Shown one piece after another: positions 10,851 through 64,000 of a stretch of DNA of 64,000 nucleotides. How positions within the stretch are numbered: position 1 is the first letter of the stretch; each line of letters starts with the position of its first letter. The notes under the pieces were generated by a model. It was not told the origin of the DNA. It did not search any database and was given only the letters and a program-made list of their open reading frames with translations. A program made the translations under genes and the position numbers. Location: positions 9,777 to 73,776 of the forward strand of contig VBLP01000125.1 of assembly GCA_005887925.1 (NCBI GenBank). The letters are read 5' to 3'. Source of the DNA: Deltaproteobacteria bacterium. Lineage in GTDB: Bacteria; Myxococcota_A; Polyangia; Haliangiales; Haliangiaceae.

Positions 10851-12280
<1,430 letters not shown>

Positions 12281-36325: not shown

Positions 36326-36406
36326 CACCGCCGCGGCGAATCGGTTCCCGGCGATGTGCGCCGCGGCCGGCTGCAACGCGGCGGCCGCACCCGTGTCCTC
36401 TTCCTC

Positions 36407-36913
36407 ATGGCGCAGGCCCTCGGAACCTCCGACAAGAAGTCGGTCAACGTCGATCTCAACATCATCCCGTTCATCGACCTGATGAGCTGCATCACGGCCT
36501 TCCTGATGGTGACCGCGGTGTGGATCAACATCGCGCAGCTCGAGATCCGGCCGGCCGGCCACGCGCGCGACGCGCCGCCGTGCGTCGAGATCGACTGCGA
36601 CCCCCCCAAGCTCTCGGTGCTGATCGAGGCCGATGACATCTGGGTCGGCGTGTCGCGCGTCAACGACTTCCAGAAGCTGCCCAAGATCCAGACCGGCTAC
36701 GACTGGACCGGCCTCGAGACCGCGCTCCGGGCCCACAAGGCCTCGGCGTTCTTCGAGCGCGTCAGCAACATCGAGATCGCGGCCGACAGCACGGCCGCGC
36801 ACCCGATCGCGTACCAGGAGCTGATCGCGGCGATGGACACCGCGGTCAAGGCCGGCTTCATCGACGTCGGGATCACCGACCCGCAGGGGCTGTCGGCGCG
36901 CCCGGTGCTGTGA
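36407..36913 (+). CDS. ExbD/TolR-family protein (orphan paralogue)
   Basis: ORF 36356..36913 trimmed to ATG 36407. VNVDLNIIPFIDLMSCITAFLMVTAV carries the conserved TM Asp. About 60% identical, by manual alignment, to the ExbD at 40288..40791. Confidence 0.8.
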   Translation: MAQALGTSDKKSVNVDLNIIPFIDLMSCITAFLMVTAVWINIAQLEIRPAGHARDAPPCVEIDCDPPKLSVLIEADDIWVGVSRVNDFQKLPKIQTGYDWTGLETALRAHKASAFFERVSNIEIAADSTAAHPIAYQELIAAMDTAVKAGFIDVGITDPQGLSARPVL

Positions 36914-40209: not shown

Positions 40210-40287
40210 GTCCCTCGCGTTGTCCATCCACCGGCTACCGCCCGGCCCGGTCCGGCACTGCTCCGGCACTGCTAGCGAGGAGTCCCC

Positions 40288-40791
40288 ATGTCTGCTGCGA
40301 TAGGCACCGACGACAAGAAGAGCGTCAACGTCGAGCTCAACATCGTCCCGTTCATCGATCTGATGAGCTGCTTGACGGCGTTCCTGCTGGTCACCGCGGT
40401 GTGGATCAACATCGCCCAGATCAACATCCAGCCCAAGGGCAAGACGCGCGACCAGGCGCAGGTCCAGCAGGACGACGAGCGGGTGACGCTGTCGGTGCTG
40501 GTGCAGTCGGACCGGATCTGGGTCGGTCTGTCGCGGGTCAACGAGTTCCAGGACATCCCCAAGAAGGGCGAGGACCAGGACTGGGAGAAGTTCGAGACCA
40601 CGCTCAAGGAGCACAAGGGCTCGACGTTCTTCGCCGACCGCACCGATATCGAGATCGCCGCCGAGAGCACGACCGCGGCTCCGGTCAAGTACCAGGATAT
40701 CATCCATGCGATGGACGTGGCCGTGAAGGTCGGGTTCATCGACGTGGGCCTCTCCGACCCCCAGGGCCTCGCGGCCCGACCATCCCTGTAG
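40288..40791 (+). CDS. ExbD/TolR-family protein
   Basis: VNVELNIVPFIDLMSCLTAFLLVTAV carries the TM Asp. It is a paralogue of 36407..36913. Confidence 0.85.
   Translation: MSAAIGTDDKKSVNVELNIVPFIDLMSCLTAFLLVTAVWINIAQINIQPKGKTRDQAQVQQDDERVTLSVLVQSDRIWVGLSRVNEFQDIPKKGEDQDWEKFETTLKEHKGSTFFADRTDIEIAAESTTAAPVKYQDIIHAMDVAVKVGFIDVGLSDPQGLAARPSL

Positions 40792-46578: not shown

Positions 46579-46601
<23 letters not shown>
43809..46601 (+). CDS. Hybrid sensor histidine kinase (PAS x3, GAF, HisKA, HATPase, receiver) with damaged 3' end
   Basis: GTG start. PAS segments include [26 protein letters not shown]. The H-box is [19 protein letters not shown] and the G-box is [19 protein letters not shown]. 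The receiver has VVDDDDDA...[12 protein letters not shown]...ALTAY but no KP motif. The annotated frame runs 23 nt into tRNA-Pro. Confidence 0.85.
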
Positions 46602-46656
<55 letters not shown>

Positions 46657-46689
46657 TGGTTCTCGAGGAGGATTTGGAATCCTCGGCCT

Positions 46690-47592
46690 TCGTGGCAACT
46701 TGTTGCCCACCTGTTGCCCAAACGCGCGCTTGATGGCGTTCCGTTTGTCGGCGGACGTCACCGCGATGTAGCGCTGAGTCGTCTTCACGTCCTCGTGCCC
46801 CATGAGGTCGCCCAGGGTCATGACCGGGATGCCCCGGCGAGCGCACTCGTAGCCGAACGTGTGCCGCATGCTGTGGAACGGCATCGTCCGCCCCGTCTCG
46901 GACCTGGGCACGACCACACCGGCGCGCTTGTACAGGCGCCGGATGGCCTTGAGCATCGTCCGGTAGACCAGGAACGATCCATCGTCCGAGCTGAGCACCC
47001 ACAGCCCCCGCTTGGGCAGCGCCGCCAGCGCTGCGACGATCCGCGGCGATCGCACGACGGATCGCGATCTCTCCGCCGGCCACGTCCGTCCACTGGGCGC
47101 CGCGGAGCTCACCGACCCGCAGCCCGGCTTCGACCGCGAGTAGAACGACCACCCTGTACAGATCGTCGGCCGCTGCGACCAACTTCTCCACGTCCTCCGC
47201 AGACACGGCGACGATCGGTGCGTCCTCGGCCTTGCTGCCACCGACATGGCACCGCAGCGTCGGCTTGCCGATCACCCTGTTCTCGTACGCGTACCTCAGC
47301 ATCGTCGACAGCACCGCGAGTCGATTGTTGACGGTCTTGCGCGCGCAGCGCCTCAGCTCGATCCGCGCGAACGCGTCGACGTCGCTCTGGAGGATCTCGT
47401 CGAGCCGCATGTCCCCGAAGAACGGGATCAGGTGCGTGTGGACGATCTGCGTCTTGTGCTTGAGCACGCCGGGCTTCTGTCCGGGCAGGTAGCCGTCGAG
47501 GAACGGCTCCCGAGCCGGAGGAACTTCGCGGCCTGCTCGACCGTGAGGACGTCGTCGTCCTGGGGAGCGCCGCTGTCGTCGGTGGCGCTCAT
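46690..47592 (-). pseudogene. Tyrosine recombinase / phage integrase, multiply frame-disrupted
   Basis: The N-terminal SAM-like part (REPFLDGYLPGQKPGVLKHKTQIVHTHLIPFFGDMRLDEI...VEAGLRVGELRGAQWTDV) is in the frame of ORF 46460..47467. The catalytic part (MPFHSMRHTFGYECARRG...LMGHEDVKTTQRYI) is in the frame of ORF 46453..47247. The segment that should carry the first catalytic Arg is missing at the junction. A possible ATG at 47592 (MSATDDSGAPQDDDVLTVEQAAKF) is in a third frame. No clean stop occurs before the tRNA. Confidence 0.75.
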
Positions 47593-48863: not shown

Positions 48864-49589
48864 TCATGCGGCCTCCTGGTGGAGCTCGGCACGGCGGTGG
48901 GCACGCAACTCGCGCGCCGCGGCGAGACGACGATCGCGCTCGGCCCAGATCGTGGGGCCGCGACCGGCCACGAAGTCGGCCGGGGTGATGTAGCCGATCG
49001 CGCTGTGCAAGCGGACCGTGTTGTAGTGCTCGACGAACTTCGCGACGAGCGCGCGCGCCTCGTCGAGGGTGTGCGGAGCACCCGGGCGGATCGCGTCGGA
49101 CTTGATGGTCTTGTGGTAGCGCTCAAGCTTTCCGTTCGACTGCGGGTAGTAGGGCGACGTCCTGACGTGGGTCATGCCCGTGAGACGGATGTACTCCTTG
49201 AAATCCTTCGCGATGAACTGCGGGCCATTATCGGAGATAATGCGCGGCTTCTCGTCAGGATGCATCTCGTGCGCGCGCTGCAAGATGCACTCGACGTCGG
49301 TCTCGGTCATCGACTCGAGGATGTCCCAGTGCACGATCGCGCGGCTCGCCCCGTCGAGAATCGAGCACAGATAGTAGAACGTGCCACCAAGGTTGAGGTA
49401 CGCGATGTCGATGTGCCAGTGCTCGTGCGGCCGGAGCGGCTGCACGAACCCGGTGCCCTTCTTGGATGGCTTCTTGTTCCAGCGGTCGAGCAGGCCTGCA
49501 GCGGAGAGCACGCGGTACACGCTCGCCGGACTCGCGGCGGCGATGTCGCGATCGATCATCATGAACGTCAACCGACGATAGCCCTGCAC
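48864..49589 (-). mobile_element. IS3-family transposase OrfB (rve/DDE integrase core) fragment, lacking OrfA and its 5' part
   Basis: EHWHIDIAYLNLGGTFYYLCSILDGASRAIVHWDI...IISDNGPQFIAKDF...YYPQSNGKLERYHKTIK is a classic DD(35)E rve domain. No OrfA/HTH gene lies upstream; instead an unrelated gene fragment starts near 49600. Confidence 0.8.
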
Positions 49590-49635
49590 GACGGCGAAGA
49601 CCGCGTTCGGGGTCAGAACCTGGTGGCGGCGCTGG

Positions 49636-49865
49636 GTGCAGGGTCTGCGCGACGCCGCGCTCGATCGCCCGCGCGTCTGGGCCGGTCTCTACGAGATGTC
49701 GCCGGATCGCCACGCCGTACTCGGCTGGGCGCCGGCTGCCCCACATCCTGCTGGTCAACGGCAGCTTCGGCTACGGCGTCATGCACGCGCCGCCGTTCGG
49801 TCTGCGCGCCGCCGAGATCGCCGCCTTCTCGAGGCGCGAGACGAGGATGGGCGAGAGCGCGGTCG
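49636..49865 (+). pseudogene. 3' fragment of an FAD-dependent (DAO-family) oxidoreductase gene
   Basis: VWAGLYEMSPDRHAVLGWAP is in one frame and LLVNGSFGYGVMHAPPFGLRAAEIA is in another. This resembles the C-terminus of DAO-family enzymes. No N-terminal part is present. Confidence 0.4.
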
Positions 49866-51128
49866 TCACTTCCTGCGCCGCGTCGCGCGCGTCGCGCGCT
49901 TCGGCTTCGTGGGCTTCTCTTCCCGCGGCGTCTCCAGGCTGGCTTCAGCGAGGCGCCGGTCCCGTTCGAGCTCGCGTCGCAGCTCCTCTTCGGTCGGCAG
50001 GTACGTCAGGTACTTCGCGGCGAAGAGCTGTTTGTACTCGTTCAGGACCGAGTAGCGCGCGATCGTGTGGTTCTCCTCGGCGCAGAGGATGAGGCCGATG
50101 GTCGGCCCGTCGCCCGGCGCGCGCTCGTGCGCGTCGAAGATCCGCACGTAGCTGTCCATCTGCCCGACGTCTTGGTGCGTGAGCCTGCGGAGCTTGAGAT
50201 CGATCAGCAGGTAGCACTTGAGCAGGATGTTGTAGAAGACGAGGTCGATGAAGAGGTGATCGTCGTCGAAGGAGATCCGCTTCTGGCGGGCGACGAACGC
50301 AAAGCCCTTGCCCAGCTCCAAGAGGAACTGGGACAGCTTGCTGATGATGGCAGTCTCGAGGTCGCTCTCTCGGTACTCGTGACGGCCAGACAGCCCCAGA
50401 AAATCGAGGATGAGAGGCGACTTGATGAGGTCGCTCGGCCGCTCGACGGTCTGCCCCTTCCGAGCAAGCTCCATCACGCCGGCCTTGTTCCGGCTCTTGA
50501 GCAGACGCAGGTGGAGCGCGGTGAAGATCTGGCGCTCGAGGTGGGGCGTTGACCAGTTCTCGCGCTCGGCCTCGATCTCGTAGAAAGCGCGCGCTGCCGG
50601 GTCGCTCACCTTGAGCAGCGCACGGTAGTGCGTCCACGACAGGCGGCTGGAGAACCCCTGGGCGAATTCTGCACGAGCCTCGTGCAGAATCTTGGTTGCG
50701 TCGATCGGCTTCGCATTCTGCACGAGGCTCGCGCGGAATACCTCGGCCCGGATCGAGGGCGCTCGCTCTCGATAGGTCAGGTGGAAGTCACGGAAGTACC
50801 AGAGGTTTCTCGTCGAGTAGCCGCGCCCGACGCGTGCGAGGAGCTGCGCCGACAGGTCCTCGATCACCTGCTCGCCGTACTCCGCGCGCGACTCGCCGCG
50901 CTGCACGTACTCGACGATCTCGTGGCCGATGTGCCAGTACGACAGCACCATCGCGCTGTTGACAGTGCGGACGACGCGGGAGCGCGCGTCCTCGATGATC
51001 GCCACCACGCGCTCGACGAGCGCGGCGAAGTCGCCGGTCGGCGCGAGCGCGTTCCATTGTCTCCGCGCTGCGGAGGTTCTCTTGGGGCTCGGTTGCACGG
51101 CCTTCTTCCTCGCTCGCTTCGCCGTCAT
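49866..51128 (-). CDS. DUF1016/YhcG-family PD-(D/E)xK nuclease
   Basis: 420 aa and intact. ESDLETAIISKLSQFLLELGKGFAFVARQKRISFDDDHLFIDLVFYNILLKCYLLIDLKLRRLTHQDVGQMDSYV matches the YhcG nuclease core. The C-terminus is Lys/Arg-rich. Confidence 0.85.
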   Translation of the reverse strand: MTAKRARKKAVQPSPKRTSAARRQWNALAPTGDFAALVERVVAIIEDARSRVVRTVNSAMVLSYWHIGHEIVEYVQRGESRAEYGEQVIEDLSAQLLARVGRGYSTRNLWYFRDFHLTYRERAPSIRAEVFRASLVQNAKPIDATKILHEARAEFAQGFSSRLSWTHYRALLKVSDPAARAFYEIEAERENWSTPHLERQIFTALHLRLLKSRNKAGVMELARKGQTVERPSDLIKSPLILDFLGLSGRHEYRESDLETAIISKLSQFLLELGKGFAFVARQKRISFDDDHLFIDLVFYNILLKCYLLIDLKLRRLTHQDVGQMDSYVRIFDAHERAPGDGPTIGLILCAEENHTIARYSVLNEYKQLFAAKYLTYLPTEEELRRELERDRRLAEASLETPREEKPTKPKRATRATRRRK

Positions 51129-51566
51129 AGGTCACGCCCCAGCAGTCGAGCCTCGTCGGGCGCCCCCTTGAGCTGGAGGCGCTCGCGGTCGTCGTCTACC
51201 AGGTCGTCGGGCGGTCGAGACGTCCTCACAACCGGTGAGCCTACCGTGTCCCGTGAGAGAGCATCCGGGCGTGCGTGAGATCGACGCTTGTGCGGGATCG
51301 CCAGCTGGTGGCGACGAGATTCCGGTCGATGATGCCCTTGCAGGTCGACTTCGCGGACGCCGCACGAGCTCGGGCTCCGGACCGGCGGCTCGCTCCGCGG
51401 ACCAGGGCGCGGGGACGAGACCCCGGCGAGTTCCGGGAGGCAACCGTTGCCCAAAAAGCCGAGAAGGGCAGGGACCAACCGGGATGACCCGGGATCAGGA
51501 CGCCGGGTAACCACTTGAGATCGTGCGAAGTCGCTGTTTTGCTTCGCCAAGTGGCAGCCCGGCTGC

Positions 51567-51593
51567 GAGGTTCGAATCCTCTCGCCCCGACCA
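51567..51593 (+). repeat. attR: 27-bp direct repeat (duplicate of the tRNA-Pro 3' end)
   Basis: GAGGTTCGAATCCTCTCGCCCCGACCA. There is no matching 5' acceptor arm (CGGGGCG) within 100 nt upstream, so this is not a second tRNA. Confidence 0.9.
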
Positions 51594-52946
<1,353 letters not shown>

Positions 52947-53018
52947 GGCAACCGGCTCCGCGACGATGCTCCTGGGGCCGGCGGTGCGGCCGGGCGGCCC
53001 GAGCGGTACCATGCATCC

Positions 53019-53771
53019 GTGCCCCAGATCCGCGAGCTCGCGATCGAGCGCCTCGACGGCGACACCCGGCGCGCCGACCGCGATCGCGTCGTCGTCGAGG
53101 CGCCGCTCGAGCTGCGCGCGCGCGGCACGCCGGTCGCGACGATCATGCGGACCCCGGGCCACGACCTCGAGCTGGTGCGCGGCCTCCTGCACGCCGAGTC
53201 GCTCGGGCCGGCGGCGCTCGCCCAGGTCGGCGACGACACCGTCGAGGTCGACATCGCGTCCGGTGCGTTCGCCGGCCGCGGCGTGCTGGCCTCGGCCGCC
53301 TGCGGCGTGTGCGGGCGGGTCGCGATCGCCGACCTCGAGCTGCGCGCCCGCGAGGTCACCGCCGACACCGCGATCGCCCACGGCGTGCTCGCCGGACTGC
53401 CCGAGGCGCTGCGCGCCGCGCAGTCCGTGTTCGCCGACACCGGCGGCCTCCACGCCGCCGGGCTCGCCACCACCGCCGGCGCGCTGGTCGCCGCGCGCGA
53501 GGACGTCGGCCGCCACAACGCCGTCGACAAGCTGGCCGGCTGGGCGCTCGGGGCCGGCCTCGATCCGGCCGTGCACGTCCTCGTCCTCTCCGGCCGGCTG
53601 GGCTACGAGCTGGTCCAGAAGGCGATCATGCTCGGCGTACCGATCGTCGCCGCCGTCTCGGCCCCGAGCTCGCTCGCCGTCGAGCTGGCCGAGCGCTTCA
53701 ACGTCGCCTTGGTCGGCTTCGTCCGTGGCCGCCGCGCCAACGTCTACGCCCACGGCTGGCGGGTCTGGTAA
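53019..53771 (+). CDS. fdhD: Formate dehydrogenase accessory sulfurtransferase FdhD
   Basis: The 3' part of ORF 51624..53771, from GTG 53019. Motifs are [23 protein letters not shown] and [15 protein letters not shown]. Confidence 0.85.
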
Positions 53772-53782
53772 AGTCATCGTCG

Positions 53783-54001
53783 ATGCGCCACTTCAAGAGC
53801 GTGATCGAGCGCCATGACGACGGGTATGTCGCGTACCCGGTCGGCTTGCGCGGTATCGTCATAGGCCAGGGCGATACGCTCGACGAAGCCCTGGCGGATG
53901 TACGGTCAGCGATCCAGTTTCACCTGGAAACGTTCGATGCGACATTGGCCGAGGATGAGCCTCTCGATATCGTCCTGGCCGACCTGGCTATCCCAGCGTG
54001 A
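53783..54001 (+). CDS. hicB: HicB-family antitoxin
   Basis: ATG 53783. [49 protein letters not shown] is the HicB/UPF0150 fold pattern. The stop overlaps the next start (GTGA). Confidence 0.7.
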
Positions 54002-54193
54002 AATTCCCCGTTGATGCGCCGCGGCACCGCGTCCTGGCGACGCTTGCGAAGCTGGGGTTCATCGTGGTTCGCGAGGGCAACGCCGATGACCATTCCGAAT
54101 CACGCAACCCTCAAGGGTTCAACGCTGCGAACGATCTGTCGCCAGGCGGGAATCGCGCGCGACGCGTTCTTGAACGCATGGGAAGAGAGCTGA
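53998..54193 (+). pseudogene. hicA: HicA-family toxin, internally deleted and frameshifted
   Basis: The N-terminus [28 protein letters not shown] is in the frame of ORF 53998..54213. The C-terminus PMTIPNHATLKGSTLRTICRQAGIARDAFLNAWEES* is in the frame of ORF 54011..54193. The roughly 10-15 residues that normally carry the G-S-H catalytic region between them are absent. Confidence 0.6.
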
Positions 54194-54221
54194 GAGGCTG
54201 GCGCGTGCAGTAGCACCTCGC

Positions 54222-57200
54222 GTGGTGTCGAACATGATCGAGCGACTACCAGGCGACGAGCCGGAGATAGGCGACGCGCTGATCATCGCGGGCTACGAGG
54301 TTGGCCAGCCCACTGCCGGCACGCGGCTGCCTCCGATCGCCCAGCTCGGGCAAGTTCTCCTCGGAGCGAGGCGTCCGTGGCGGATCCGGCGCCTCGCAGC
54401 GCCGGGCTCGGACCGCGACGTCCCCACGCGGCAAAACGTCCGGCGCGAGATCGATGCGCTGTTCGCGCGTCGCGCCGCCGCTCGGCTGCTCGTGCTCACC
54501 GGCGAGGTGATTCGCACCCTCGAGGGCCTGGGTCTGGTCTGTGCCCCCGAGCTGGGCGGGTTTCGCGAGGACGCCACGGTCCCCCTGGAGTGGATCGGCG
54601 AACGGCTGCGCCCGCTCGGTGGCGCCACGGTGGTGATCCTCGCCGCGACCGCAGAGCAGCGCGATCCCGTGCGCTGGCTGCAGGCACTCGCCGCCCGGCC
54701 GGCGGACCATCTCGTCGTGGCGCATGCCGGCCCGCCGCTCGAGGCGCTCGAGGCGCTGCTCGACGGCCTGGCGCCGGGCGAGCGCGATCCCGAGACCGGC
54801 GAGATCACACCACGCTCGCTGGGAGCTCATCTCGCGCATCGCCTGCGCTCGGCCGCGATCCAGCGCTCGCGATCCGCGGTACCGCTGCTCGCGCTGGCGG
54901 CCAGCCCGGCGCACGCGGGCACCGGGGAACGGCCGGCGCGAGCCGCCGAGCCCGAGGACCTCGTCGGAGCGATCCTGCCCGGCCGGTTCCGGATCGACGC
55001 CGAGATCGCGCGCGGCCGGTTCGCGACGGTGTACCGCGCGCATCAGGAGCTCGTCGGCCGCGACGTGGCGATCAAGGTCCTGGAGTCCGATCCGTCCGCG
55101 GAGGCCGTGCGCCGGTTCCTCGACGAGATCCGCACGGTCGCGCGCCTCGACCACCGCAACATCGTGCGCGTGCTGCACGCGGATCTGACCCGCGGCGGCC
55201 GGATGTTCCTCGCCATGGAGCTCGTGGCCGGCAAGACCCTCCAGCAGGTGCTCGATGACACGGGGCCGCTCCCGGCGGCCCGCGCCGTCGCGATCGCGCG
55301 GCAGATGCTCGCCGGGCTGGCAGCCGCACACGCCGGCGGTGTCATCCACGCCGATATCAAGCCGGCCAACACCGTGGTGCTCGACGGCGACGGCGATGGC
55401 GACGAGCGCGTGGTGCTGCTCGACTTCGGCCTGTCACGCCTTCAGACCGGCGCCGCTGTCGCCTCCGCCGGAGGAACCCCCGCGTACATGGCACCCGAGC
55501 AGCTCCGTGACGGCATCGTCGATGTCCGCTCCGACCTCTACGCGACCGGGCTGGTGCTGGTCACCATGCTCGCGGGGCAGCGCCCCGCGTCGGAGGCCGC
55601 GCTGGCGCGCTCGATCGAATCGCTCGACGACCATCGACTGAGCGCGGCACTGGGTCGCGCGCTCGCGGAGAACCCCAGCGACCGCTTCGCCTCGGCCGCC
55701 GAGATGTCCGCCGCGCTGGCGTTCGACGGCGAGTCGCTGGATCCGCCACCGCGACCGCCGTTCCGCTCAGCGGCGCCGTTCTCGGAAGCCGATCGCGACG
55801 AGTTCTTCGGCCGCGACCGCGAGATCGAGGTCCTGCTCGAACACGTCCTGTTCAGCCGCGCCGTCATCTACGTCGCGCCCTCGGGAACCGGCAAGACCTC
55901 CTTGCTCCGCGCGGGGCTGTCTCCGCGCCTGACCCGGCTCGGGGTTCGCCCGGTCTACGTCGCGTGCCGTCCCGGCGTCCCCGACGGAGTCGCTGCGGCG
56001 ATCTCCCCAGACCACACGCGCATCCTCGACGCCATCGCGCACCATCATGCATCGTCGCAGCGGCGCCTCGTCATCATCATCGATCAGATCGAGGCCGCTC
56101 TCCTCGCGCCGGCCGACGCCGACACGGTCGTCGAGAACCTTTCGCTGCCGCGCTGGCCCGCCGATGCGCAGGTCTCCGTCGTCCTCAGCGTCCGCGAGGA
56201 ATACCTCGCGCGCCTGCTCGACCGGACGCAGCGGATCGACCCGGGTATCCCGATCGTGCGGCTCGGGCCGCTCGGCCCCGACGCCGCGCGTGACGCGCTG
56301 ACCCGCACGCTCGCCACCCGCCGGCTGACGATCGAGCCGGCCCTGCTCACCGCCCTGATCGACGACCTCGCGCGCGCGGCCTCCCGGCTCGCGATCGATC
56401 TCGGCTGGGGCGCGGGGCCCGCGATCTACGCACCGCACCTGCAGCTCGCCGGTGCGGTGCTCTACGAGGCGCTGCCCGCCGGCGCCCTCGAGATCCCGCA
56501 CGCGCTGTACGCGCAGCTCGGTGGGCTCGACAAGATCGTCGCCGAGCACCTCCACCATGTGCTCGAGGGTGAGCTGCCGCCCGGTGACACCGCGATCGCG
56601 CGCGATCTCCTGCTCGCGCTGGTCGCCAGCAGCCACCTGCGCACCGCGCGCCGCGAGTCCGAGCTGGTCGCGATCGCGCGCCGGCCGGCCCGCGCGCAGC
56701 CCGCCGATCCCGGCTCCGAGCGGCCCGAAACCGCGATCGTCGCCGTCATCCACTTCCTCCGCAGCCGTGGCTTGCTCGTGTCCACCGCGGGACCGGCCGG
56801 CGAGACCCTCTGGGACCTCGCGCACGACAGCCTGATCGAGCGCGTCCAGCAGTGGATCACGAGGACCGACCTCGCCCGGCTGCGTGCCGTCGAGCTGGTT
56901 CGTTACCACCTGCGCCGCACGCGCGCCGGCCAGCTCAGCCGCCTCGGTGCCGGCGAGCTGCGCGAGACCCGCAGCCACCTGGCCGCCGCCGACCTGTCCG
57001 ACCTCGACGACGAATGGGCGCGTCCGGGCGACCCCGCGCCGGCGACCGCCCTGGTATCCGCCTCGCGCCGCGCCCTGCGCACCCGGCGCGCCACCCTGGG
57101 AGCCTCCGCCGCCATCGCCATCGCCGTCGCCGCCGGCCTCGCCCTGCGGTGGCAGGAGGAGCGCGCGCTGCGCCGGCGCGAGACCACGCTGCGCGATCGC

Positions 57201-58337
57201 GACATCGGCCACTTCACCCTCGCGCTGCGCGCCTTCGACTGGAATCCCGACGCCCTCGCGCCGCGCGACGTCGCCCCCGCGAGCACCTTCAGCTTCGACT
57301 GGGAGCTCCACAAGCCCGATCCCGACGATCCAGACAGCCCCGGCGCGGTGTACTCCGATGACTATCTCACGCGTCGTCCCGTCACCGCCGCCCTCGGCAC
57401 GCGCACCGACGACGTGGCCGCACGCGGCGGACCCGCCGTCCTGGTCATTCACCGCCGCGACCCCGCACAGCCCGCCGCCTTCTGCCGCGACGTGCTCCTG
57501 CCGATCCGCCGGCTCCCCGGCTACGCCACCGAGCCGACCACCCTGCAATTCACCGTGCGCGTCCCGACCTGCGCCGCCACGCGCGCCGGCACCGTCGCCA
57601 TTCCCGGCGGCCCGTTCATCGCCGGCGGCCAGGGCGACCCTCCGGCACCCTACGCGGCCAGCGAGCTGCCCCCGGAAGCCACCGTCGATCTACCGGCCTA
57701 CGCGATCGACCGCACCGAGGTGCCGATCGCCGCGCTCGATCTGTTTCTCACCATGCGACCGCTGCACGGCATCGTTGCCCCGCCGCACCCGAGCAACACG
57801 GCGCGGTACCCCAACCAGGCACGGTTCCCCGCCGCCGCCATCACCTGGCGCGAGGCGCGCGCGTTCTGCCGCTACCTCGGCAAGGACCTGCCCACGCTCG
57901 ATCAGTGGGACAAGGCTCTCCGCGGCGGCACCACCCTCGACGGCCAGCCCAACCCATGCCCCCGCCGCACCTTCGCCTGGTGCGGCGCCATGAACACCCA
58001 GTGGGCCAACGTCCGCATCGGCGACCAAGCCCAGCCGCTGCCGGTCGGCAGCAACCCGCACGACACCAGCCCCTACGGCGTCCTCGACATGGTCGGCAAC
58101 GTCCAGGAGTGGACGCGCTCTCCCGACCTCCCCTACGAGACCTTCCCGGCCACCCTGTCCGCCGCCGAGCGCTACCGCCGGCAGACCGGCAACCAGCCGA
58201 TAGTCATCTCCCGCGGCTGCGACTGGGGGGACATCGAGTGCGCCACCCTCCCGCTGACCATCATGCCGATCGCCAACCCACGCCTGCGCGACGTCCGCTA
58301 CTTCACCCTCGGCTTCCGCTGCGCGGTCAGCGATTGA
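54222..58337 (+). CDS. Multidomain signalling protein: caspase-like (catalytic residues absent) + Ser/Thr kinase + STAND P-loop NTPase + TM + FGE-sulfatase (SUMF1) domain
   Basis: 1371 aa. Kinase motifs are VAIKVL, HADIKPAN, DFGLS and GTPAYMAPEQ. The STAND entry motif is FSEADRDEFFGRDREIEVLL...VAPSGTGKTSLLRAGL. The TM segment is LGASAAIAIAVAAGLAL. The FGE domain shows YAIDRTEV, ITWREARAFCRYLGKDLPTLDQWDKALRG, GVLDMVGNVQEWT and LGFRCAVSD. Confidence 0.85.
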   Translation: MVSNMIERLPGDEPEIGDALIIAGYEVGQPTAGTRLPPIAQLGQVLLGARRPWRIRRLAAPGSDRDVPTRQNVRREIDALFARRAAARLLVLTGEVIRTLEGLGLVCAPELGGFREDATVPLEWIGERLRPLGGATVVILAATAEQRDPVRWLQALAARPADHLVVAHAGPPLEALEALLDGLAPGERDPETGEITPRSLGAHLAHRLRSAAIQRSRSAVPLLALAASPAHAGTGERPARAAEPEDLVGAILPGRFRIDAEIARGRFATVYRAHQELVGRDVAIKVLESDPSAEAVRRFLDEIRTVARLDHRNIVRVLHADLTRGGRMFLAMELVAGKTLQQVLDDTGPLPAARAVAIARQMLAGLAAAHAGGVIHADIKPANTVVLDGDGDGDERVVLLDFGLSRLQTGAAVASAGGTPAYMAPEQLRDGIVDVRSDLYATGLVLVTMLAGQRPASEAALARSIESLDDHRLSAALGRALAENPSDRFASAAEMSAALAFDGESLDPPPRPPFRSAAPFSEADRDEFFGRDREIEVLLEHVLFSRAVIYVAPSGTGKTSLLRAGLSPRLTRLGVRPVYVACRPGVPDGVAAAISPDHTRILDAIAHHHASSQRRLVIIIDQIEAALLAPADADTVVENLSLPRWPADAQVSVVLSVREEYLARLLDRTQRIDPGIPIVRLGPLGPDAARDALTRTLATRRLTIEPALLTALIDDLARAASRLAIDLGWGAGPAIYAPHLQLAGAVLYEALPAGALEIPHALYAQLGGLDKIVAEHLHHVLEGELPPGDTAIARDLLLALVASSHLRTARRESELVAIARRPARAQPADPGSERPETAIVAVIHFLRSRGLLVSTAGPAGETLWDLAHDSLIERVQQWITRTDLARLRAVELVRYHLRRTRAGQLSRLGAGELRETRSHLAAADLSDLDDEWARPGDPAPATALVSASRRALRTRRATLGASAAIAIAVAAGLALRWQEERALRRRETTLRDRDIGHFTLALRAFDWNPDALAPRDVAPASTFSFDWELHKPDPDDPDSPGAVYSDDYLTRRPVTAALGTRTDDVAARGGPAVLVIHRRDPAQPAAFCRDVLLPIRRLPGYATEPTTLQFTVRVPTCAATRAGTVAIPGGPFIAGGQGDPPAPYAASELPPEATVDLPAYAIDRTEVPIAALDLFLTMRPLHGIVAPPHPSNTARYPNQARFPAAAITWREARAFCRYLGKDLPTLDQWDKALRGGTTLDGQPNPCPRRTFAWCGAMNTQWANVRIGDQAQPLPVGSNPHDTSPYGVLDMVGNVQEWTRSPDLPYETFPATLSAAERYRRQTGNQPIVISRGCDWGDIECATLPLTIMPIANPRLRDVRYFTLGFRCAVSD

Positions 58338-58363
58338 CTGAACGACGAATTGAGAATCATATA

Positions 58364-59086
58364 TTATGGCAGGACGAAGAGACATTCGAGTTCTTTGATG
58401 GGAGCATGGGAACTATCGGACGACGAATAGTGTCGAGTCTGGTTCTCGGCCCGCTTCTGGCTGATCCGCACGAGCTTGCCACCAAAAAAGAGCTCGCCGC
58501 GAGCTTCGACATCGACATTCGACAATAGCTCAATCGACTGGGATGGGACGGCAAGCAGCCCTGGTAGAGAGAACCAAGTATCAAGTCTAAGCACCTGCTC
58601 TAACGTTGTCACTTCTGTGCCGCGAACATTTGATAGAAGATTCGACAACTCTTTGCGCAAAGGCTCGCTGACCGAGCGCCGAATGGCGCCGGCTGACTTC
58701 ATCACTGAATCATTCAGCTCGTAACGGTGTGTTTTGTTTTGCAATTTTGCGAATAGATTGTGTCGTCTGTTAGAAAGAAGACCGTTGCTATTGAAGTCAT
58801 ATAACCCTACAGGACGCTGAGTTCCGTATGCTTGTATTCCGAATTCTCTCATGCGCTCTAATGCTTCCTGGGCGGCAACGCCGACGCATGTGTAGCATCC
58901 AACGAGATACAAGGGATTCTTGCTTAGACGTTCCAGAAGCGAGCGCGGCAACCGGCGGATGTTCTCGGCTGTGAGCCGGCTGATTTGGCGATCGCATCTT
59001 CTATGTCGGCCGGGCCTCCGGCTTCGGCACAACCACTTATTTGAGTTCTGACAGCCCTGAGCCAGAAATCTGATTCTGCGCCGCAA
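58364..59086 (-). CDS. Hypothetical protein in AT-rich cassette (may be the C-terminal half of one frameshifted gene)
   Basis: A 240-codon ORF in DNA where stops are frequent. The composition is ordinary from about ISRLTAENIRRLPRSLLERLSKNPLYLVGCYTCVGVAAQEALERM onwards. It overlaps the upstream ORF by 163 nt. An alternative independent start is ATG 58852. Confidence 0.55.
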   Translation of the reverse strand: MRRRIRFLAQGCQNSNKWLCRSRRPGRHRRCDRQISRLTAENIRRLPRSLLERLSKNPLYLVGCYTCVGVAAQEALERMREFGIQAYGTQRPVGLYDFNSNGLLSNRRHNLFAKLQNKTHRYELNDSVMKSAGAIRRSVSEPLRKELSNLLSNVRGTEVTTLEQVLRLDTWFSLPGLLAVPSQSIELLSNVDVEARGELFFGGKLVRISQKRAENQTRHYSSSDSSHAPIKELECLFVLP

Positions 59087-59796
59087 ATTGCCAGATGGTC
59101 TTGACGCTCGGCCAGAATAGAACCAGCATGGAAGCGATGCTCTGACGGTTCTGCCCGGGCTGCGCCAAAGGGAACCTTGGGGCCCGCAAGGAAATAGAGT
59201 GAGCGTCTGCCGATTTCTTTGAACGAGACAAAGATAGGGCCTTCTTGATCTTTGCTGAGTTTCGTGAGCGCTTGATCAAATAGCGCTGCGTCTGTCGCTT
59301 TGATCCAGGCATCCCCCAAGACTTCATTGGTCCACGAAAAAAACATCACACGCCAGAGCAAAGGGTCGTTTTCGTCGACTTCAATCACTCGTGCGTGAAA
59401 GCCCATGTAACCCTCAGTTATGCCTGCACTGCCCAGACGCATGAGGACCTGTGTCCGATAGGGTTGTTTTTGATAATACGGTGGAAGTGGTAATGAGTCT
59501 GAAATTTTAGGTACCTTGTGGATATCTTCATAGATCGGAGGTGCAAAATCGACCTCCTTGTCATCTGTTGCTCGGTCCAGTGTGTGATTCAAATCTACAT
59601 CGATTAATTCTCCTTTGATATCTTCGACAGATAATCTGTTATCTAGCCATTTGGATACATTGTCACTGGCCGATCGATCTGGAATCCATATCTTACATTT
59701 GCTCGTGGAGTTGACTGTCATCACGCATGCGTGAACGATCTGGAACGTGTATGTGGGATTGAGCGCCCCACCGGCGCTCGACGTTGACTCCGTCAT
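58924..59796 (-). CDS. Hypothetical protein in AT-rich cassette, translationally coupled to the upstream regulator gene
   Basis: A 290-codon ORF. ATG 59796 is preceded by AGGAGA with a 5-nt spacer and lies 13 nt after the regulator stop (TAA, 59810-59812). I recognise no known motif. Confidence 0.6.
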   Translation of the reverse strand: MTESTSSAGGALNPTYTFQIVHACVMTVNSTSKCKIWIPDRSASDNVSKWLDNRLSVEDIKGELIDVDLNHTLDRATDDKEVDFAPPIYEDIHKVPKISDSLPLPPYYQKQPYRTQVLMRLGSAGITEGYMGFHARVIEVDENDPLLWRVMFFSWTNEVLGDAWIKATDAALFDQALTKLSKDQEGPIFVSFKEIGRRSLYFLAGPKVPFGAARAEPSEHRFHAGSILAERQDHLAICGAESDFWLRAVRTQISGCAEAGGPADIEDAIAKSAGSQPRTSAGCRARFWNV

Positions 59797-59809
59797 GACT
59801 GTCTCCTGG

Positions 59810-61321
59810 TTAGACGCTGGACTTGGGTCGCTTGAGCTCGAAGGTCGCGATGAGGTTGTAGAGCTGCGAGCGCGCGAGCCCGAGGCGCTGGATTGCGTCG
59901 GGGACGTCCCAGTCGCAGTCGGTCAGCACGTCGAGCAGGTAGCGGCGCTGGAATCGCCGCGTGGCCTCGCGGTAGTCGAGGATCTCGCCGGCGCGCTCGG
60001 GTGGTCGGGTCGGGAACAGGTGGTGCGGATGCAGGCTGGTCGCGCCCTCGGCGGTCGCGCGGATCGCGCCGGTCTCGACGACGTTGGCCAGCTCGCGCAC
60101 CTGGCCGGGCCATGCCTCGTTCTGCACGACCGCGATCGTCGGACGCGATACGGTGAGCGGAGGCAAGCCGTGACGCGCGCAGGCCTCGCGTGCGAAGTGC
60201 TCGATGAGGGCAGGCAGGTCGTCGCGGCGATCCGCCAGGTCCGGCATCTCGATCGCGACGATGTTGAGCCGGTAGAACAGGTCGCGCCGGAACGCGCTCT
60301 TCTCGACGCGCTCGCGGAGGTCGACGTTGGTCGCCGCGATCACCCGCACGTCGGCGGAGACGATCTGCGACGAGCCGAGGGGGTAGTACTGGCGGTCCTG
60401 GAGCAGCTGGAGGAGCTTGGTCTGCGCCTCGTAGGGCAGGTCGCCGATCTCGTCGAGGAAGAGGGTTCCGCCGCGCGCGGCCGCGACCTTGCCGGGCGTC
60501 CGCTGGGTCGCGGTCGAGTGGGCGCCGCGCTCGGTGCCGAACAGCTCGCTCTCGACCAGGGCGACCGGGATCGCGCCGCAGTTGATCGCGATGAACGAGC
60601 CGCCGGCGCGACGGCTGTTATCGTGGATCGCCCGCGCGAGCGCCGACTTGCCGGTGCCCGATGGCCCGGTGATCAGCACGCCGATATCGAGGGGCGCCAT
60701 GTTCGCTGCCTCATTCAAGACCCGAGCCAGCGCACGGCTGCGCCCGATCAGCAACGGACACAGGAAGCGGCGGCGGATGTCTGCCGTGTGATCGACCGAC
60801 TCCCGCTCCGGCCACGGCGTGTGGAGGCGCTCGGCGATGAGCCCGAGCTGGGTGGCAAACAGCTCGGCCCAGTCGCGGTGCTCCGGCGAGAAGCTGCCGC
60901 CGTCGGGGCGGCCCTGCAAGTACACCACGCCGAGCGGCGGCCGGCCGATCGGCGCGCACAGCACGGCATCGATCTCGTGCTGCTGCACGCTGCTGCGGGC
61001 GGCGAACCGCGGATCGTCGCGCGCCGACGGGGTCTCGACGGTCTCCCCGGCGGCCAGCGTCGCCTGGATGATGCCGCGCGACACGGTGTTGCGGATCGTC
61101 TCGACGTGCTCGGGAGTGCAGCCGTGCGCCCGCGAGTACGCCGCCCCGGTGCGCTGATCGTGATGCAGCTCGAGATAGGCGACCTGCGCGGATGTGGACT
61201 CCACGATCAATGCGAGCGCGTGATCGAGCAGCGGCGCGAGCTCTCCCTCACGACCGACCTCGAGCAGCCTGCGATAGAAGGTGCGCTCCGACTCTGCCTG
61301 CCGTACGCCTGTACCGACCAT
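59810..61321 (-). CDS. GAF + AAA+ (sigma54-EBP type) + Fis-HTH transcriptional regulator with non-canonical GAFTGA loop
   Basis: The 3' 504 codons of ORF 59810..61966, from ATG 61321 (MVGTGVRQAE). An N-terminal GAF domain comes first. Walker A is ITGPSGTGKSALA and Walker B is GTLFLDEIGDL. ESELFGTERGAHSTAT stands where ESELFGHEKGAFTGA is expected. The C-terminal HTH is AIQRLGLARSQLYNLI. Confidence 0.85.
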   Translation of the reverse strand: MVGTGVRQAESERTFYRRLLEVGREGELAPLLDHALALIVESTSAQVAYLELHHDQRTGAAYSRAHGCTPEHVETIRNTVSRGIIQATLAAGETVETPSARDDPRFAARSSVQQHEIDAVLCAPIGRPPLGVVYLQGRPDGGSFSPEHRDWAELFATQLGLIAERLHTPWPERESVDHTADIRRRFLCPLLIGRSRALARVLNEAANMAPLDIGVLITGPSGTGKSALARAIHDNSRRAGGSFIAINCGAIPVALVESELFGTERGAHSTATQRTPGKVAAARGGTLFLDEIGDLPYEAQTKLLQLLQDRQYYPLGSSQIVSADVRVIAATNVDLRERVEKSAFRRDLFYRLNIVAIEMPDLADRRDDLPALIEHFAREACARHGLPPLTVSRPTIAVVQNEAWPGQVRELANVVETGAIRATAEGATSLHPHHLFPTRPPERAGEILDYREATRRFQRRYLLDVLTDCDWDVPDAIQRLGLARSQLYNLIATFELKRPKSSV

Positions 61322-61515
61322 CTTCTCGCTTTGCCACACGGCGTGGATCGGCCGCAAGGTCGTTGCGGGATCCGATGGACGCCTTGCGGGCCGTGGCATG
61401 GCGCCCCGAGCGCGGCCCCTCGCCGACGGCGTCCGGAAGATCGGACGGATGGCTCGCCAGTCCAGGCGACCGGACCGGCGGACCGCGCAGCTGCGCGACG
61501 CGCGGGTATCTCGTC

Positions 61516-61531
61516 TGGCGCGCGTCTTGCT
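61516..61531 (+). promoter_or_regulatory. Candidate sigma54 (-24/-12) promoter upstream of the S8-like gene
   Basis: TGGCGCGCGTCTTGCT has GG and TTGC at consensus spacing. It lies in the 225-nt divergent region between the EBP-type gene and the S8-like gene. An inverted repeat CCGCAAGGTCGTTGCGG (61352-61368) further upstream could be a UAS. Confidence 0.35.
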
Positions 61532-61546
61532 GCGGCTCCCGACGGG

Positions 61547-62788
61547 ATGCGCGAGTATGCGATGCTGCGGAGGAGGCGAGGGGCTGGTGCTCGCGCACCC
61601 TTCGACATGGCGCCCGGACCGGCGGCCGGCGCCGAGATCGAGCCAGGCGAGGTCTGGGTGGAGCGGGCGTATCTCACGGACAGCGAGGTGCTCGATCTCG
61701 CCGCCGACCCGAGCGTCGCGACCGTGACGCCGACCATGCCGACGTCGCTGGGCGCGCTGCCGGCGCTTTCGACCTCGGATGCGCCCTCGGCCTGGGGCAT
61801 CGGTGCGATCCGGGCCGACAGCTCCCCGTTCGACGGCAGCAGCATCGCCGTCGCCGTCCTCGGCACCGGGATCGACGCCGAGCACGCTGCGTTCGCCGGC
61901 GTGCAGCTCGTGCAGCGCGACTTCACCGCGACCGGCGGCGGCGATGGGCATGGCCACGGCACGCACGTGGCGGGGATCCTGTTCGGCCGGGACCTCGATG
62001 GCGTGCGCATCGGCGTGGCGCGCGGCGTCACGCGCGCGCTGATCGGCAAGACATTCTCAGAGAGCGGCGTGGGCCGGAGCGACTGGATGCAGGAGGCGAT
62101 CCTGTGGGCGTACCAGGAAGGCGCGCGGGTGATCGCGCTGGCGATGACACTCGACCTCGAGCGCGCCGTGGCGGAGTTCGTGGCCGAGGGACTGCCGCCG
62201 CATGCGGCGACCCTGCGCGCTCTCGAATGCTACCGGGCCAATGCCCGCGCGCTCGACGCGCTGATCACGCTGGTGCGGGCCAGGTCGGCATCCGAGCCCG
62301 GCGCCATCGTGGTGGTCGCTGCGGGCGATGACTCGAGGCGCGACGCGCGCCCTCCGGCCGTGGCCTTCCGGATCGCCGCCGGGCCGCCGGCCGCCGCCGC
62401 GGATGCGCTCGTCGTGGGGGCCGTGGAGCAGCGCACGGCCGGCCTCATCACCGCACCGTTCTCCAACCTGTACCCGCGCCTGTGCGCGCCCGGCGTCGAC
62501 GTGGCGTCCGCCCAGCGCGGAGGTGGCATCGCAGCGCGGAACGGCACGAGCATGGCCGCGGCGCACGTGGCCGGCGTCGCTGCGCTGTGGTGGCAACACC
62601 TCGGCGAGCGCAGCCCGGCCGAGCTCGTCGCCGCGCATGTCCTGCGATCGTGCCGCACCGGCGTGTTCGCGAGTGCGCCTCATCCGGCCGAGGCCGGGGC
62701 GGGCCTCGTGACCGCACCGGGCGAAGAGCTACTCGCGCCGCGGGCCCGGACTCCCGCGAGCGCAATACCGGACTGCAGACATCGATAG
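61547..62788 (+). CDS. Subtilisin-like (S8) protein with no signal peptide and a non-canonical Asp/oxyanion position
   Basis: The 3' part of ORF 59747..62788. Candidate starts are ATG 61547, 61562 or 61607. The His motif is DGHGHGTHVAGI and the Ser motif is NGTSMAAAHVAGVAAL. The Asp motif reads VAVLGTGID (GGC where GAC is expected). AAGDD stands where AAGN is usual. Confidence 0.75.
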   Translation: MREYAMLRRRRGAGARAPFDMAPGPAAGAEIEPGEVWVERAYLTDSEVLDLAADPSVATVTPTMPTSLGALPALSTSDAPSAWGIGAIRADSSPFDGSSIAVAVLGTGIDAEHAAFAGVQLVQRDFTATGGGDGHGHGTHVAGILFGRDLDGVRIGVARGVTRALIGKTFSESGVGRSDWMQEAILWAYQEGARVIALAMTLDLERAVAEFVAEGLPPHAATLRALECYRANARALDALITLVRARSASEPGAIVVVAAGDDSRRDARPPAVAFRIAAGPPAAAADALVVGAVEQRTAGLITAPFSNLYPRLCAPGVDVASAQRGGGIAARNGTSMAAAHVAGVAALWWQHLGERSPAELVAAHVLRSCRTGVFASAPHPAEAGAGLVTAPGEELLAPRARTPASAIPDCRHR

Positions 62789-62837
62789 ATGAGCAGCTGT
62801 ACTGCTTGAACCAGGAACTCCATAGGGCGAGGTGAAC

Positions 62838-64000
62838 ATGAAGCGGGTCGTCGTCGTGTTGTGGTTGATCAGTGGAATCACGCGGGCGTGGGCAGATGCA
62901 GCGCCGCCCCCGGCAAAGCCGAGCGGACCGCCGGCCGAGGCGCCGGTAGCGTCGGCACCAGTCTGTGACAATGCCGAGCTCAAGCAAGGTCATTCATGGT
63001 GTGATCCAGCTACATTCCCGGGCCTCGGCGACGCAGTGCTGGTGTGCATCGAAGCTCGCCGTGGCTGTCTCGTGGGTGTCACGCACGTACACTCCCGGTA
63101 CCATCTGGACACCGGAACAAAGCCAACCACGAGCATACAACCGGATCTGATTCCTCCAAACCTACCGATCGTGGTCGCCGTGCACGCCCGGGATGACTCA
63201 TCCGCGAGAGATGTGTCTGTGGCACTCGCAGGAACCGCTGGCCAGTCACTGCCAGAAGTGTTTACAGGGTTGGGCAAGGGAATTGGCACCTCAATGGTCG
63301 CAGAAGCCATCGACACTACTCCACCACCGCCGCCCGAAGAACGATATTATCTATCACGTTTCGCCCCTCGGACTCCTGGCGCTGCACAGCTCACTGTGAC
63401 TATCACAGAGGCGGTAGACAGTCGGGCGGTCGCCGGCGGAGGCACGCCAGAAGCGTCGTCGCGCGGCTCGTTGTGTTTCGCGGTCTTCTGCAACGTCGTC
63501 TACGCAGCAGCTGCCGCCGAGAAATCCGACGGTGGTCCGAAGCTGAAGAAGTCGACCTTTGCGTACGAGCTCTATGTTCCCAAGATCTACGGAGGCGCGC
63601 TGCGGCTTGGCATCGGCGCGGTCCGCGTCCACGGTCTCGAGCACAGCTACGGGGCGCGCAAGGTGGCCGGCAGCGACTTCTCGCAGGTCGTCGATAATGG
63701 CGCCGATCCGGTCAACCTGGAGGTCGTGGTCGGCTATGCGCCCTTCCTCGGCGCAAAGCTGACGTCCGACATGGGCGGTCGCACGTACATGCGCGACGAC
63801 AATCCGTGGACGCGGTTTGCTCCCTACTTCGGCGTCGGGATCATCTCGTCATCGAACAGCAAGTTCGAGTGGCTGCGTTCGCTGTACGCGGGCGTCGAGT
63901 ACGAGCTCACACCGGGTAGCTCTCTCGCGCTCGCACTGGTCATCCGGCGCGTGGATGCGCTCGCGAACGGCCTGTCGGTTGGCATGCCGGTGGCCGATAC
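62838..64000 (+). CDS. Secreted protein of unknown function, 3' end beyond the window
   Basis: Not in the ORF track because no stop is reached. ATG 62838 follows GGCGAGG. My own translation gives MKRVVVVLWLISGITRAWADAAPPPAKPSG... (signal peptide), a Cys-containing N-domain, then a strand-like C-terminal part (...FAPYFGVGIISSSNSKFEWLRSLYAGVEYELTPGSSLALALVI...). The frame is open to nt 64000. Confidence 0.6.
   Translation, partial: MKRVVVVLWLISGITRAWADAAPPPAKPSGPPAEAPVASAPVCDNAELKQGHSWCDPATFPGLGDAVLVCIEARRGCLVGVTHVHSRYHLDTGTKPTTSIQPDLIPPNLPIVVAVHARDDSSARDVSVALAGTAGQSLPEVFTGLGKGIGTSMVAEAIDTTPPPPPEERYYLSRFAPRTPGAAQLTVTITEAVDSRAVAGGGTPEASSRGSLCFAVFCNVVYAAAAAEKSDGGPKLKKSTFAYELYVPKIYGGALRLGIGAVRVHGLEHSYGARKVAGSDFSQVVDNGADPVNLEVVVGYAPFLGAKLTSDMGGRTYMRDDNPWTRFAPYFGVGIISSSNSKFEWLRSLYAGVEYELTPGSSLALALVIRRVDALANGLSVGMPVAD

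Follow-up and report, generated by a model that had tools for sequence, protein, structure and literature searches.

A low-GC block behind a sigma-54 activator gene as a probable damaged allele of a fast-evolving gene for a putative protease

What is a block of 50.5% GC doing directly behind a regulator gene in DNA that is otherwise 71.5% GC? The question is raised by a 64,000-nucleotide stretch of contig VBLP01000125.1 (hereafter the window), part of the metagenome-assembled genome (MAG) E6J91 of a Deltaproteobacteria bacterium of the Haliangiaceae (assembly GCA_005887925.1), in which the block occupies positions 58338-59809. Here, we propose that the block holds an allele, now damaged, of a chromosomal gene that is conserved yet evolves very fast (hereafter X), and that X encodes a putative protease partner in an undescribed module of a sigma-54 activator and a STAND kinase; taken as a whole, we judge this proposal to be probable. 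A first-pass annotation, made from the letters of the window, had instead described an orphan cassette of foreign cargo wedged in behind the regulator, with no family or catalytic motif, possibly a toxin/immunity pair, and of undescribed function. The last point stands, in that X has no characterised function.

The gene in the AT-rich block

The low GC of the block is an anomaly unique in the window. No other 1433-nt window falls below 63.6% GC (mean 71.6%, sd 2.8), the span of gene X is itself 50.7% GC, and the earlier spot counts (19 G+C of 60 at 59581-59640, 41 of 60 at 59881-59940) are exact; the flanking genes, put at about 68% GC in the first-pass annotation, measure about 70-72%. The two open reading frames (ORFs) of the block, of 290 and 240 aa, have 51-56% GC at third codon positions, as against 90-92% in neighbouring genes. 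TTA (6 codons) and AAA (14 codons) are used in the block and not once in 2265 neighbouring codons, and AGA (7 vs 1) and ATA (5 vs 3) are likewise enriched; the earlier list of rare codons holds, with GGA enriched just mildly; the intact allele of X described below has 7 TTA codons, its neighbours none. Rfam, terminator/promoter and repeat scans of the block gave nothing above chance, and the block is neither of low complexity nor endowed with repeats liable to cause collapse.

Is the block one gene or two? The two minus-strand ORFs do overlap by 163 nt, as first reported, and the AGGAGA site and first ATG read as stated, with the activator stop codon at 59812-59810, AGGAGA at 59807-59802 and a gap of 13 nt from stop to ATG. 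The features of the block are as follows.

58364..59796, minus strand: gene X, deletion-bearing allele and probable pseudogene; the intact form has 528 aa (P0034, TMQ05327.1, from the sister MAG E6J90)
58924..59796, minus strand: ORF1, 290 aa, annotated E6J91_11510; carries the N-terminal domain, short of 23 residues, and the opening strands and helices of the putative protease domain, then a 16-residue out-of-frame tail
58364..59086, minus strand: the 240-aa ORF, of which 58364..58975 is the homologous part
58364..58975, minus strand: 3' remnant of X in the other frame, encoding LTAENIRRL...LVGC(Y)T...PGLLAVP... to the stop
59802..59807, minus strand: AGGAGA ribosome-binding site, 5 nt ahead of the ATG at 59796 and directly past the activator stop
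59518..59520, unstranded: junction of an in-frame 69-nt deletion that removes P0034 residues 94-116 (LMDLYGDLPLGRTMSGQVTIRED), including the conserved GQVxI strand of the N-terminal domain; 1-nt microhomology
58974..58977, unstranded: junction (58976/58975) of a frameshifting 85-nt deletion, with the loss of roughly P0034 residues 298-325 and, among them, invariant His307 (DLISHS motif); 2-nt microhomology
58886..58888, minus strand: TGC (Cys) codon where all intact alleles have GGC (Gly355), 3 residues past the invariant Cys in the GCxT(A/G)xG motif; one of three single-nucleotide polymorphisms (SNPs) across 14.5 kb
58895..58897, minus strand: encodes the invariant Cys (Cys352 of P0034), putatively the catalytic nucleophile; kept in the window

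A search with the repaired fusion of the two ORFs retrieved P0001, a protein of 503 aa encoded on L001, a 2-kb contig that is the same locus and carries the ends of both flanking genes. Four assemblies (L001, L011, L012 and L013) are 100% identical to the X of the window except for one SNP and two segments, of 69 and 85 nt, that the window lacks; the 528-aa protein P0034, which begins at the same ATG as ORF1, is found on L011, L012 and L013 and, at 100% identity, on L016. Five other assemblies of the same population thus hold a single intact ORF. The start of ORF1 is further backed by the alignment of its first 25 residues to the N-termini of P0003 and P0004, and the NCBI annotation of the 3' remnant covers the last 112 aa only (E6J91_11505, P0033). 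With high confidence, therefore, the block is the same gene as X in a damaged allele, and the suggestion that one gene had been split by an indel near 58930-59086 is borne out by the 85-nt deletion at 58976/58975. The toxin/immunity pair falls away because both ORFs are fragments of this one gene, cut inside the putative protease domain and not at a natural domain boundary. Two genuine overlapping genes were considered and rejected, as was an intron or intein as the source of the missing segments (no splice-like ends, too short, and one of them not a multiple of 3). Deletion by strand slippage at direct repeats was also set aside, the nearby short repeats lying off the junctions.

Are the deletions real? 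The split might be an assembly artefact, with a true genome that holds the intact 528-aa gene and with both deletions, and perhaps the SNP, being local mis-assemblies; this is a possibility to be taken seriously, if the lesser one. In its favour, and to the detriment of our proposal, the deletion allele is present in this single MAG, all five other assemblies being intact, and N-runs and small gaps in sister scaffolds (L011 at about 9612-9719 and 11275-11305, L012 at several sites), which fragment the STAND-kinase gene there, reveal local assembly errors in the dataset. The junctions themselves speak for real events: microhomology there is just 1-2 nt, an assembler based on de Bruijn graphs would need reads that span them, and the block has nothing repetitive that would collapse. 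The window allele also has a private non-synonymous SNP in the active-site loop. Over the 14,470 nt shared by L013 and the window (49531-64000) the two differ by three SNPs and the two segments and by nothing else; 3 of these 5 differences fall inside X, which makes up 10% of the span (binomial P = 0.008), as expected of a distinct decaying haplotype. On balance, we consider it fairly probable that the deletions are biologically real.

The X family and its putative protease domain

X is no orphan: 31 relatives were found when 1.84 billion representatives (50% clustering) were searched exhaustively with HMMER. Of these, 11 are full-length (449-585 aa, 28-37% identity) and the others consist of the N-terminal half alone (about 230 aa) or the C-terminal half alone (about 280-310 aa). 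All come from metagenomes, the only NCBI entries being the two MAG proteins; X is thus a rare gene, confined so far to a small number of uncultured bacteria from soil. A word-indexed protein search, even with the family profile, returned the same locus only, and pattern scans of 185,579 species genomes returned no relatives, two family alignments having been too variable for pattern building. Mean column identity across the aligned family is just 23%, yet a few positions never vary: a His (25/25), a Gly-Cys pair (23/23), the following Thr (24/24) and a Gly (24/24).

These data are best explained by an intact X (528 aa) made up of a beta-rich N-terminal domain, a PKVP[FWY]G linker, a DUF4347-type alpha/beta domain with the invariant His...Gly-Cys pair (His and Cys 45 residues apart), and a C-terminal extension of about 130 aa with a PGLLxxP motif. 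No relatives could be detected for either the N-terminal domain or the C-terminal extension. X occurs naturally as a pair of genes in L008, L009/L010 and the P0030 contig, the division falling a few residues past PKVP[FWY]G, a site that differs from the break in the window copy. As a side observation, the N-terminus of P0001/P0034 (window about 59700-59796, minus strand), with its conserved FYxAxA...YxLWLxD pattern, weakly and non-significantly resembles the cytoplasmic N-terminal domain of the rhomboid GlpG (PDB 2mja, E 0.54).

What, then, might the C-terminal half of X be? DUF4347 (PF14252) is matched by 19 of the 31 family members at E < 1, and two of these, P0007 (27.3 bits) and P0017 (29.9 bits), exceed its gathering score of 24.6 bits. 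P0001 is linked to both of these members (E 1.5e-24 for P0007, E 4.9e-13 for P0017), so that any DUF4347 membership of X would be transitive. The earlier statement that no family or catalytic motif could be recognised gives way to a DUF4347-like C-terminal half with an invariant His and Cys. This putative dyad is present in intact X and throughout the family; the window allele lacks it, the His codon lying inside the 85-nt deletion. An AlphaFold2 model built with a 31-sequence alignment has a mean predicted local distance difference test score (pLDDT) of 82, rising above 90 over a beta-alpha-beta core, and places His307 and Cys352 each directly after a strand of the beta-alpha-beta sandwich in the C-terminal half; from the single sequence the pLDDT was 33. 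A strand-His and a strand-Cys in such a sandwich are the clan-CD arrangement, as in caspase, legumain and TcdB.

The DUF4347 family itself has lately been tied to such enzymes. PA0256 of Pseudomonas aeruginosa is a DUF4347 protein (PMC8262886); in 2026 it was named Tce1 and put forward as a putative cysteine protease whose His186 and Cys240 align with the dyad of the TcdB protease domain, and the toxicity of the related Tce2 depends on its active site (PMC13323088). From the sequence family and the model together, we therefore regard the DUF4347-like domain of X as a likely cysteine protease, similar to those of clan CD and of the TcdB/Tce kind. Since its His is gone and its frame broken (two deletions and an active-site-loop substitution), any such protease would be destroyed in the window copy of X, which is very probably non-functional.

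Several observations weigh against a protease. Neither the ORFs of the window nor P0001 and P0034 have any Pfam match even at E <= 1, and searches of both ORFs and the intact protein against Pfam, NCBIfam and PADLOC gave no matches. Foldseek, queried with the whole two-domain model against PDB and BFVD, gave nothing at E <= 0.001. Clan-CD structures appear among its weak matches only (legumain E 0.11, Csx29 0.23, caspase-9 0.36, c-FLIP 0.63, Tce1 itself as 9qpe_G 0.93 at TMt 0.40, and a TcdB complex). Sequence searches of PDB with three profiles missed Tce1 and TcdB and returned chance matches only (for example, E 0.54 for the GlpG N-domain and E 0.4 for a TIR protein), and an hhalign comparison of the protease core with one neighbouring C14 caspase was negative.

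Could the domain then be a binding or regulatory module, such as an anti-activator or co-sensor in the manner of NifL/NifA or PspA/PspF, with its His and Cys serving a metal or ligand? The tight and universal association of X with its activator would suit such a role, as would the want of a significant structural match to any protease and the report that Tce1 itself has neither toxicity nor demonstrated activity (PMC13323088). The invariant His and Gly-Cys at strand ends, about 45 residues apart in a beta-alpha-beta sandwich, are in contrast what clan CD would predict, and the active-site dependence of Tce2 points the same way; we regard a non-proteolytic module as rather unlikely and continue with X as a putative protease.

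A fixed chromosomal slot

The neighbours of X in the window are as follows.

59810..61321, minus strand: GAF-domain sigma-54 enhancer-binding protein (the activator), 503 aa, with Pfam GAF, Sigma54_activat and AAA_lid_14; constant upstream operon partner of X (start codon taken from the sequence and the L013 gene call)
54222..58337, plus strand: Pkinase-nSTAND1-FGE-sulfatase protein (the STAND kinase), about 1367-1371 aa; constant convergent partner, its stop 26 nt from that of X
61607..62788, plus strand: S8 (subtilase) peptidase, running divergently from the activator; often, though not always, part of the module
61516..61530, plus strand: sigma-54-type -24/-12 element TGGCGC-N5-TTGC (TGGCGCGCGTCTTGC) upstream of the S8 gene, with one mismatch; one of 3 such sites in the 64 kb

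The order activator, X, convergent STAND kinase was found in 11 of 11 contexts read (the window, L002/L003, L004/L005, L006, L007, L009/L010, L011-L013, L014, L015 and the P0030 contig; L008 is too short for flanks). In every relative read, the gap between activator and X is 11-15 nt or an ATGA overlap, an operon-type spacing from which co-transcription and translational coupling of X with the activator are probable; the close spacing reported at first is thus general, and the coupling itself remains a probable consequence of it. The first-pass annotation had paired the activator with the S8 peptidase as companions whose co-occurrence with the block should be followed among relatives. The activator is constant; the S8 gene lies divergent from it in the window, L004, L007 and L011-L013 and is absent beside the P0030 triad. 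The STAND kinase (Pkinase 1.6e-38, nSTAND1 1.3e-37, FGE-sulfatase 2.2e-29) has the same layout beside X in L004, L007, L013 and the P0030 contig, and the sigma-54-type element is kept at the same place in L004.

Is X, in this slot, a resident or an import? Between the window and L004, the activators are 88% identical in amino-acid sequence and the STAND kinases 78%, as against 69% for the S8 peptidases and 35% for X. Every part of X diverges fast, the C-terminal extension fastest, and across all pairs the divergence of X ranks as that of its flanks does, with L002 and L004 closest and L006 and L007 farthest. In most lineages X is depressed in GC: in six it lies 8-20 GC points under its flanks, and AT-rich codons are enriched 3- to 16-fold there.

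Window: X 50.5% GC, flanks about 72%
L004: X 54% GC, flanks about 70%
L006: X 56% GC, flanks about 69%
L007: X 57% GC, flanks about 70%
L002: X 62% GC, flanks about 70%
L014: X 63% GC, flanks about 68%

L009 and L015 show no such depression, which tells against our account to the extent that low GC is therefore not a fixed property of the family.

A recently acquired foreign cassette, whether effector or toxin/immunity pair, inserted behind a host regulator would account for a block 21 GC points under the genome with foreign-looking codon usage, for GC boundaries that are sharp and coincide with the ORF ends, and perhaps for a tRNA-Pro and an integrase-like ORF about 12 kb off. It fits poorly with other observations: X occupies the same slot in all 11 contexts, in lineages whose activators are just 62-88% identical; its divergence follows that of the flanks; tblastn of X against 72,556 plasmids and 50,697 phages gave no matches; the block edges have no flanking repeats or mobile-element genes; and the supposed pair is one gene in fragments. 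On the strength of the fixed slot, the flank-ranked divergence and the lack of plasmid and phage matches, the foreign-cargo reading is not supported, and we hold it to be very improbable.

A further competitor would explain the low GC and extreme divergence of X by recombination in the conserved flanks that has repeatedly exchanged its allele (xenologous replacement), as at O-antigen or specificity loci. The GC of X does vary widely among close relatives (window 50.5%, L004 54%, L002 62%), and identity falls abruptly at the borders of the gene; against this, the identity of X keeps the rank order of the flanks, no lower-GC donor lineage appeared among the 1.84 billion representatives, and every match whose context was read belongs to the same triad. 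We consider such replacement unlikely. In our reading, X is an old chromosomal resident whose evolution outpaces that of its neighbours several-fold and which has drifted, or been selected, towards AT, its low GC and rare codons reflecting rapid evolution in situ and not recent import, possibly under selection for low expression.

The surroundings are conflict-like, as was first proposed, in that the Pkinase-nSTAND1-FGE protein and the S8 peptidase adjoin X. A point against reading the locus as a defence system is that no PADLOC (2.0) or PHROG-type defence annotation was obtained; the ORFs of the window, P0034 and P0007 have no PADLOC match.

Other features of the region are recorded here in their own right. 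Between activator and S8 gene (61330-61610, plus strand), CCGG-rich palindromes of the GTCCGGAAGnTCGGAC type lie upstream of the -24/-12 element and recur in L004 and L007. Downstream of the S8 gene is a second stretch of lower GC, 60-65% (62838-64000, plus strand; L011 2875-4146; L004 1701-3068), which encodes the start of a 423-455 aa protein with a fast-diverging N-terminal half (51% identity overall vs 73% over the last 220 aa); this protein has no Pfam or PADLOC match, the genes adjoining the S8 gene are without family, and gene calls here differ among sister assemblies (423 aa vs 237 aa). In L007, a C14 caspase gene (19620-20474) and a large RHS/YD-repeat protein (21506 onward) lie within 10 kb of the triad, surroundings that fit a conflict-system neighbourhood. 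In the window, a tRNA-Pro(TGG) stands beside an ORF with a sub-threshold phage-integrase match (46460-47467 and 46579-46655), and next come a YhcG/PDDEXK nuclease (49866-51128) and then an HD-domain protein (51594-53777), a region that may be an island edge. Farther away are tandem repeats of about 150-190 nt and FG-GAP/VCBS type in a large gene (23700-24900), and paralogous segments 3.9 kb apart and 75-79% identical (36402-36903 vs 40283-40781).

A possible protease-gated switch and its relatives

In light of X being a putative protease, probably coupled to an activator, what might the module do? Starting from the observed gene order, activator-X spacing, domain content, invariant His/Cys pair and promoter-like element, one option is a cascade in which the STAND kinase would sense a ligand through its lectin-like FGE domain and would act on X, on the activator or on both, X presumably being made in fixed proportion with the activator. 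X might then cleave itself at the PKVPxG linker, releasing precisely the pair of polypeptides encoded by the split lineages, or might cut the inhibitory GAF domain of the activator. The activator would next fire the sigma-54 promoter of the divergent S8-peptidase operon, which would provide the output. Protease activity, substrates and order of events are modelled here on protease-gated defence modules (PMC12642450). We offer this sequence of STAND kinase, X, activator and S8 operon as doubtful.

A broader and more speculative reading, which we think improbable in its full form, is that the triad, often with a sigma-54-driven S8 operon, is an undescribed protease-gated sigma-54 switch for immunity or cell fate in uncultured, myxobacteria-like soil bacteria. 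The lectin-fold STAND kinase would detect an invader or non-self, X would license the activator by GAF removal or by self-cleavage at PKVPxG, and an operon of second-tier proteases or effectors would be induced. The hyper-divergence and AT-rich rare codons of X would then be marks of an arms race and of a translational brake on a dangerous enzyme, and the window would hold a natural loss-of-function allele segregating in the population.

How does the module compare with systems already described? The DUF4347/Tce proteins (Tce1 PA0256 and Tce2) are putative TcdB-like (MEROPS C80, clan CD) cysteine protease effectors of type VI secretion (PMC8262886, PMC13323088), and among DUF4347 proteins activity has been shown for none except, indirectly, Tce2. 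X shares with them an alpha/beta core and a comparable His...Gly-Cys spacing (45 in X, 54 in Tce1, 50 in Tce2). It differs in that the protein of the window stays under Pfam detection, in its N-terminal domain and C-terminal extension of about 130 aa, and in being cytoplasmic-looking, not linked to Hcp or type VI secretion, and fixed in a regulator/STAND-kinase triad.

The STAND-FGS systems that bear nSTAND1 are predicted counter-invader sensors with a lectin-fold FGE (Kaur et al. 2021, PMC8195603; Dore et al. 2024, PMC10907252). The convergent partner of X (54222-58337) has their architecture of N-terminal effector, here a serine/threonine kinase, STAND NTPase (nSTAND1) and C-terminal FGE, and peptidase genes lie nearby. 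In the described systems, unlike in the module of X, neither a sigma-54 activator nor a partner with DUF4347 has been reported; conversely, no EAD adaptor domains were detected here, and the window has no template/variable repeat of a diversity-generating retroelement, no repeat pairing with the 3' end of the FGE region being found anywhere in the 64 kb.

Protease-gated effectors are common in defence (PMC12642450). Like Csx29-Csx30 with its sigma factor and CalpL-CalpT-CalpS, the X module sets a protease gene beside a transcription regulator and a sensor, with effector-like and protease parts fused or split; unlike in those systems, the regulator is a sigma-54 AAA+ activator, the sensor a STAND kinase and not a CRISPR or CARF protein, and cleavage is hypothetical. 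A further comparison is with partners of other sigma-54 activators. In NifL-NifA, PspA-PspF and HrpV-HrpS, the partner is co-operonic with the activator and often translationally coupled to it, implying stoichiometric interaction. Those partners have no sequence or domain similarity to X, and they are neither proteases nor hyper-divergent.

We found no published link joining DUF4347, a sigma-54 activator and STAND-FGS systems. What is new here is that a DUF4347-type putative protease stands in STAND-FGS surroundings and has a regulator as its new partner, a combination of known kinds and not something categorically new.

If our proposal is true, DUF4347, whose link to cysteine proteases dates only from 2026, would gain a second, non-secreted context. 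A sigma-54 enhancer-binding protein would be tied to the STAND-FGS 'antigen sensor' systems, offering a route from sensor to transcription. X would be a clean case of a gene that, in one chromosomal slot, evolves several-fold faster than its neighbours and at much lower GC, and would thus caution against taking a compositional anomaly for recent horizontal transfer.

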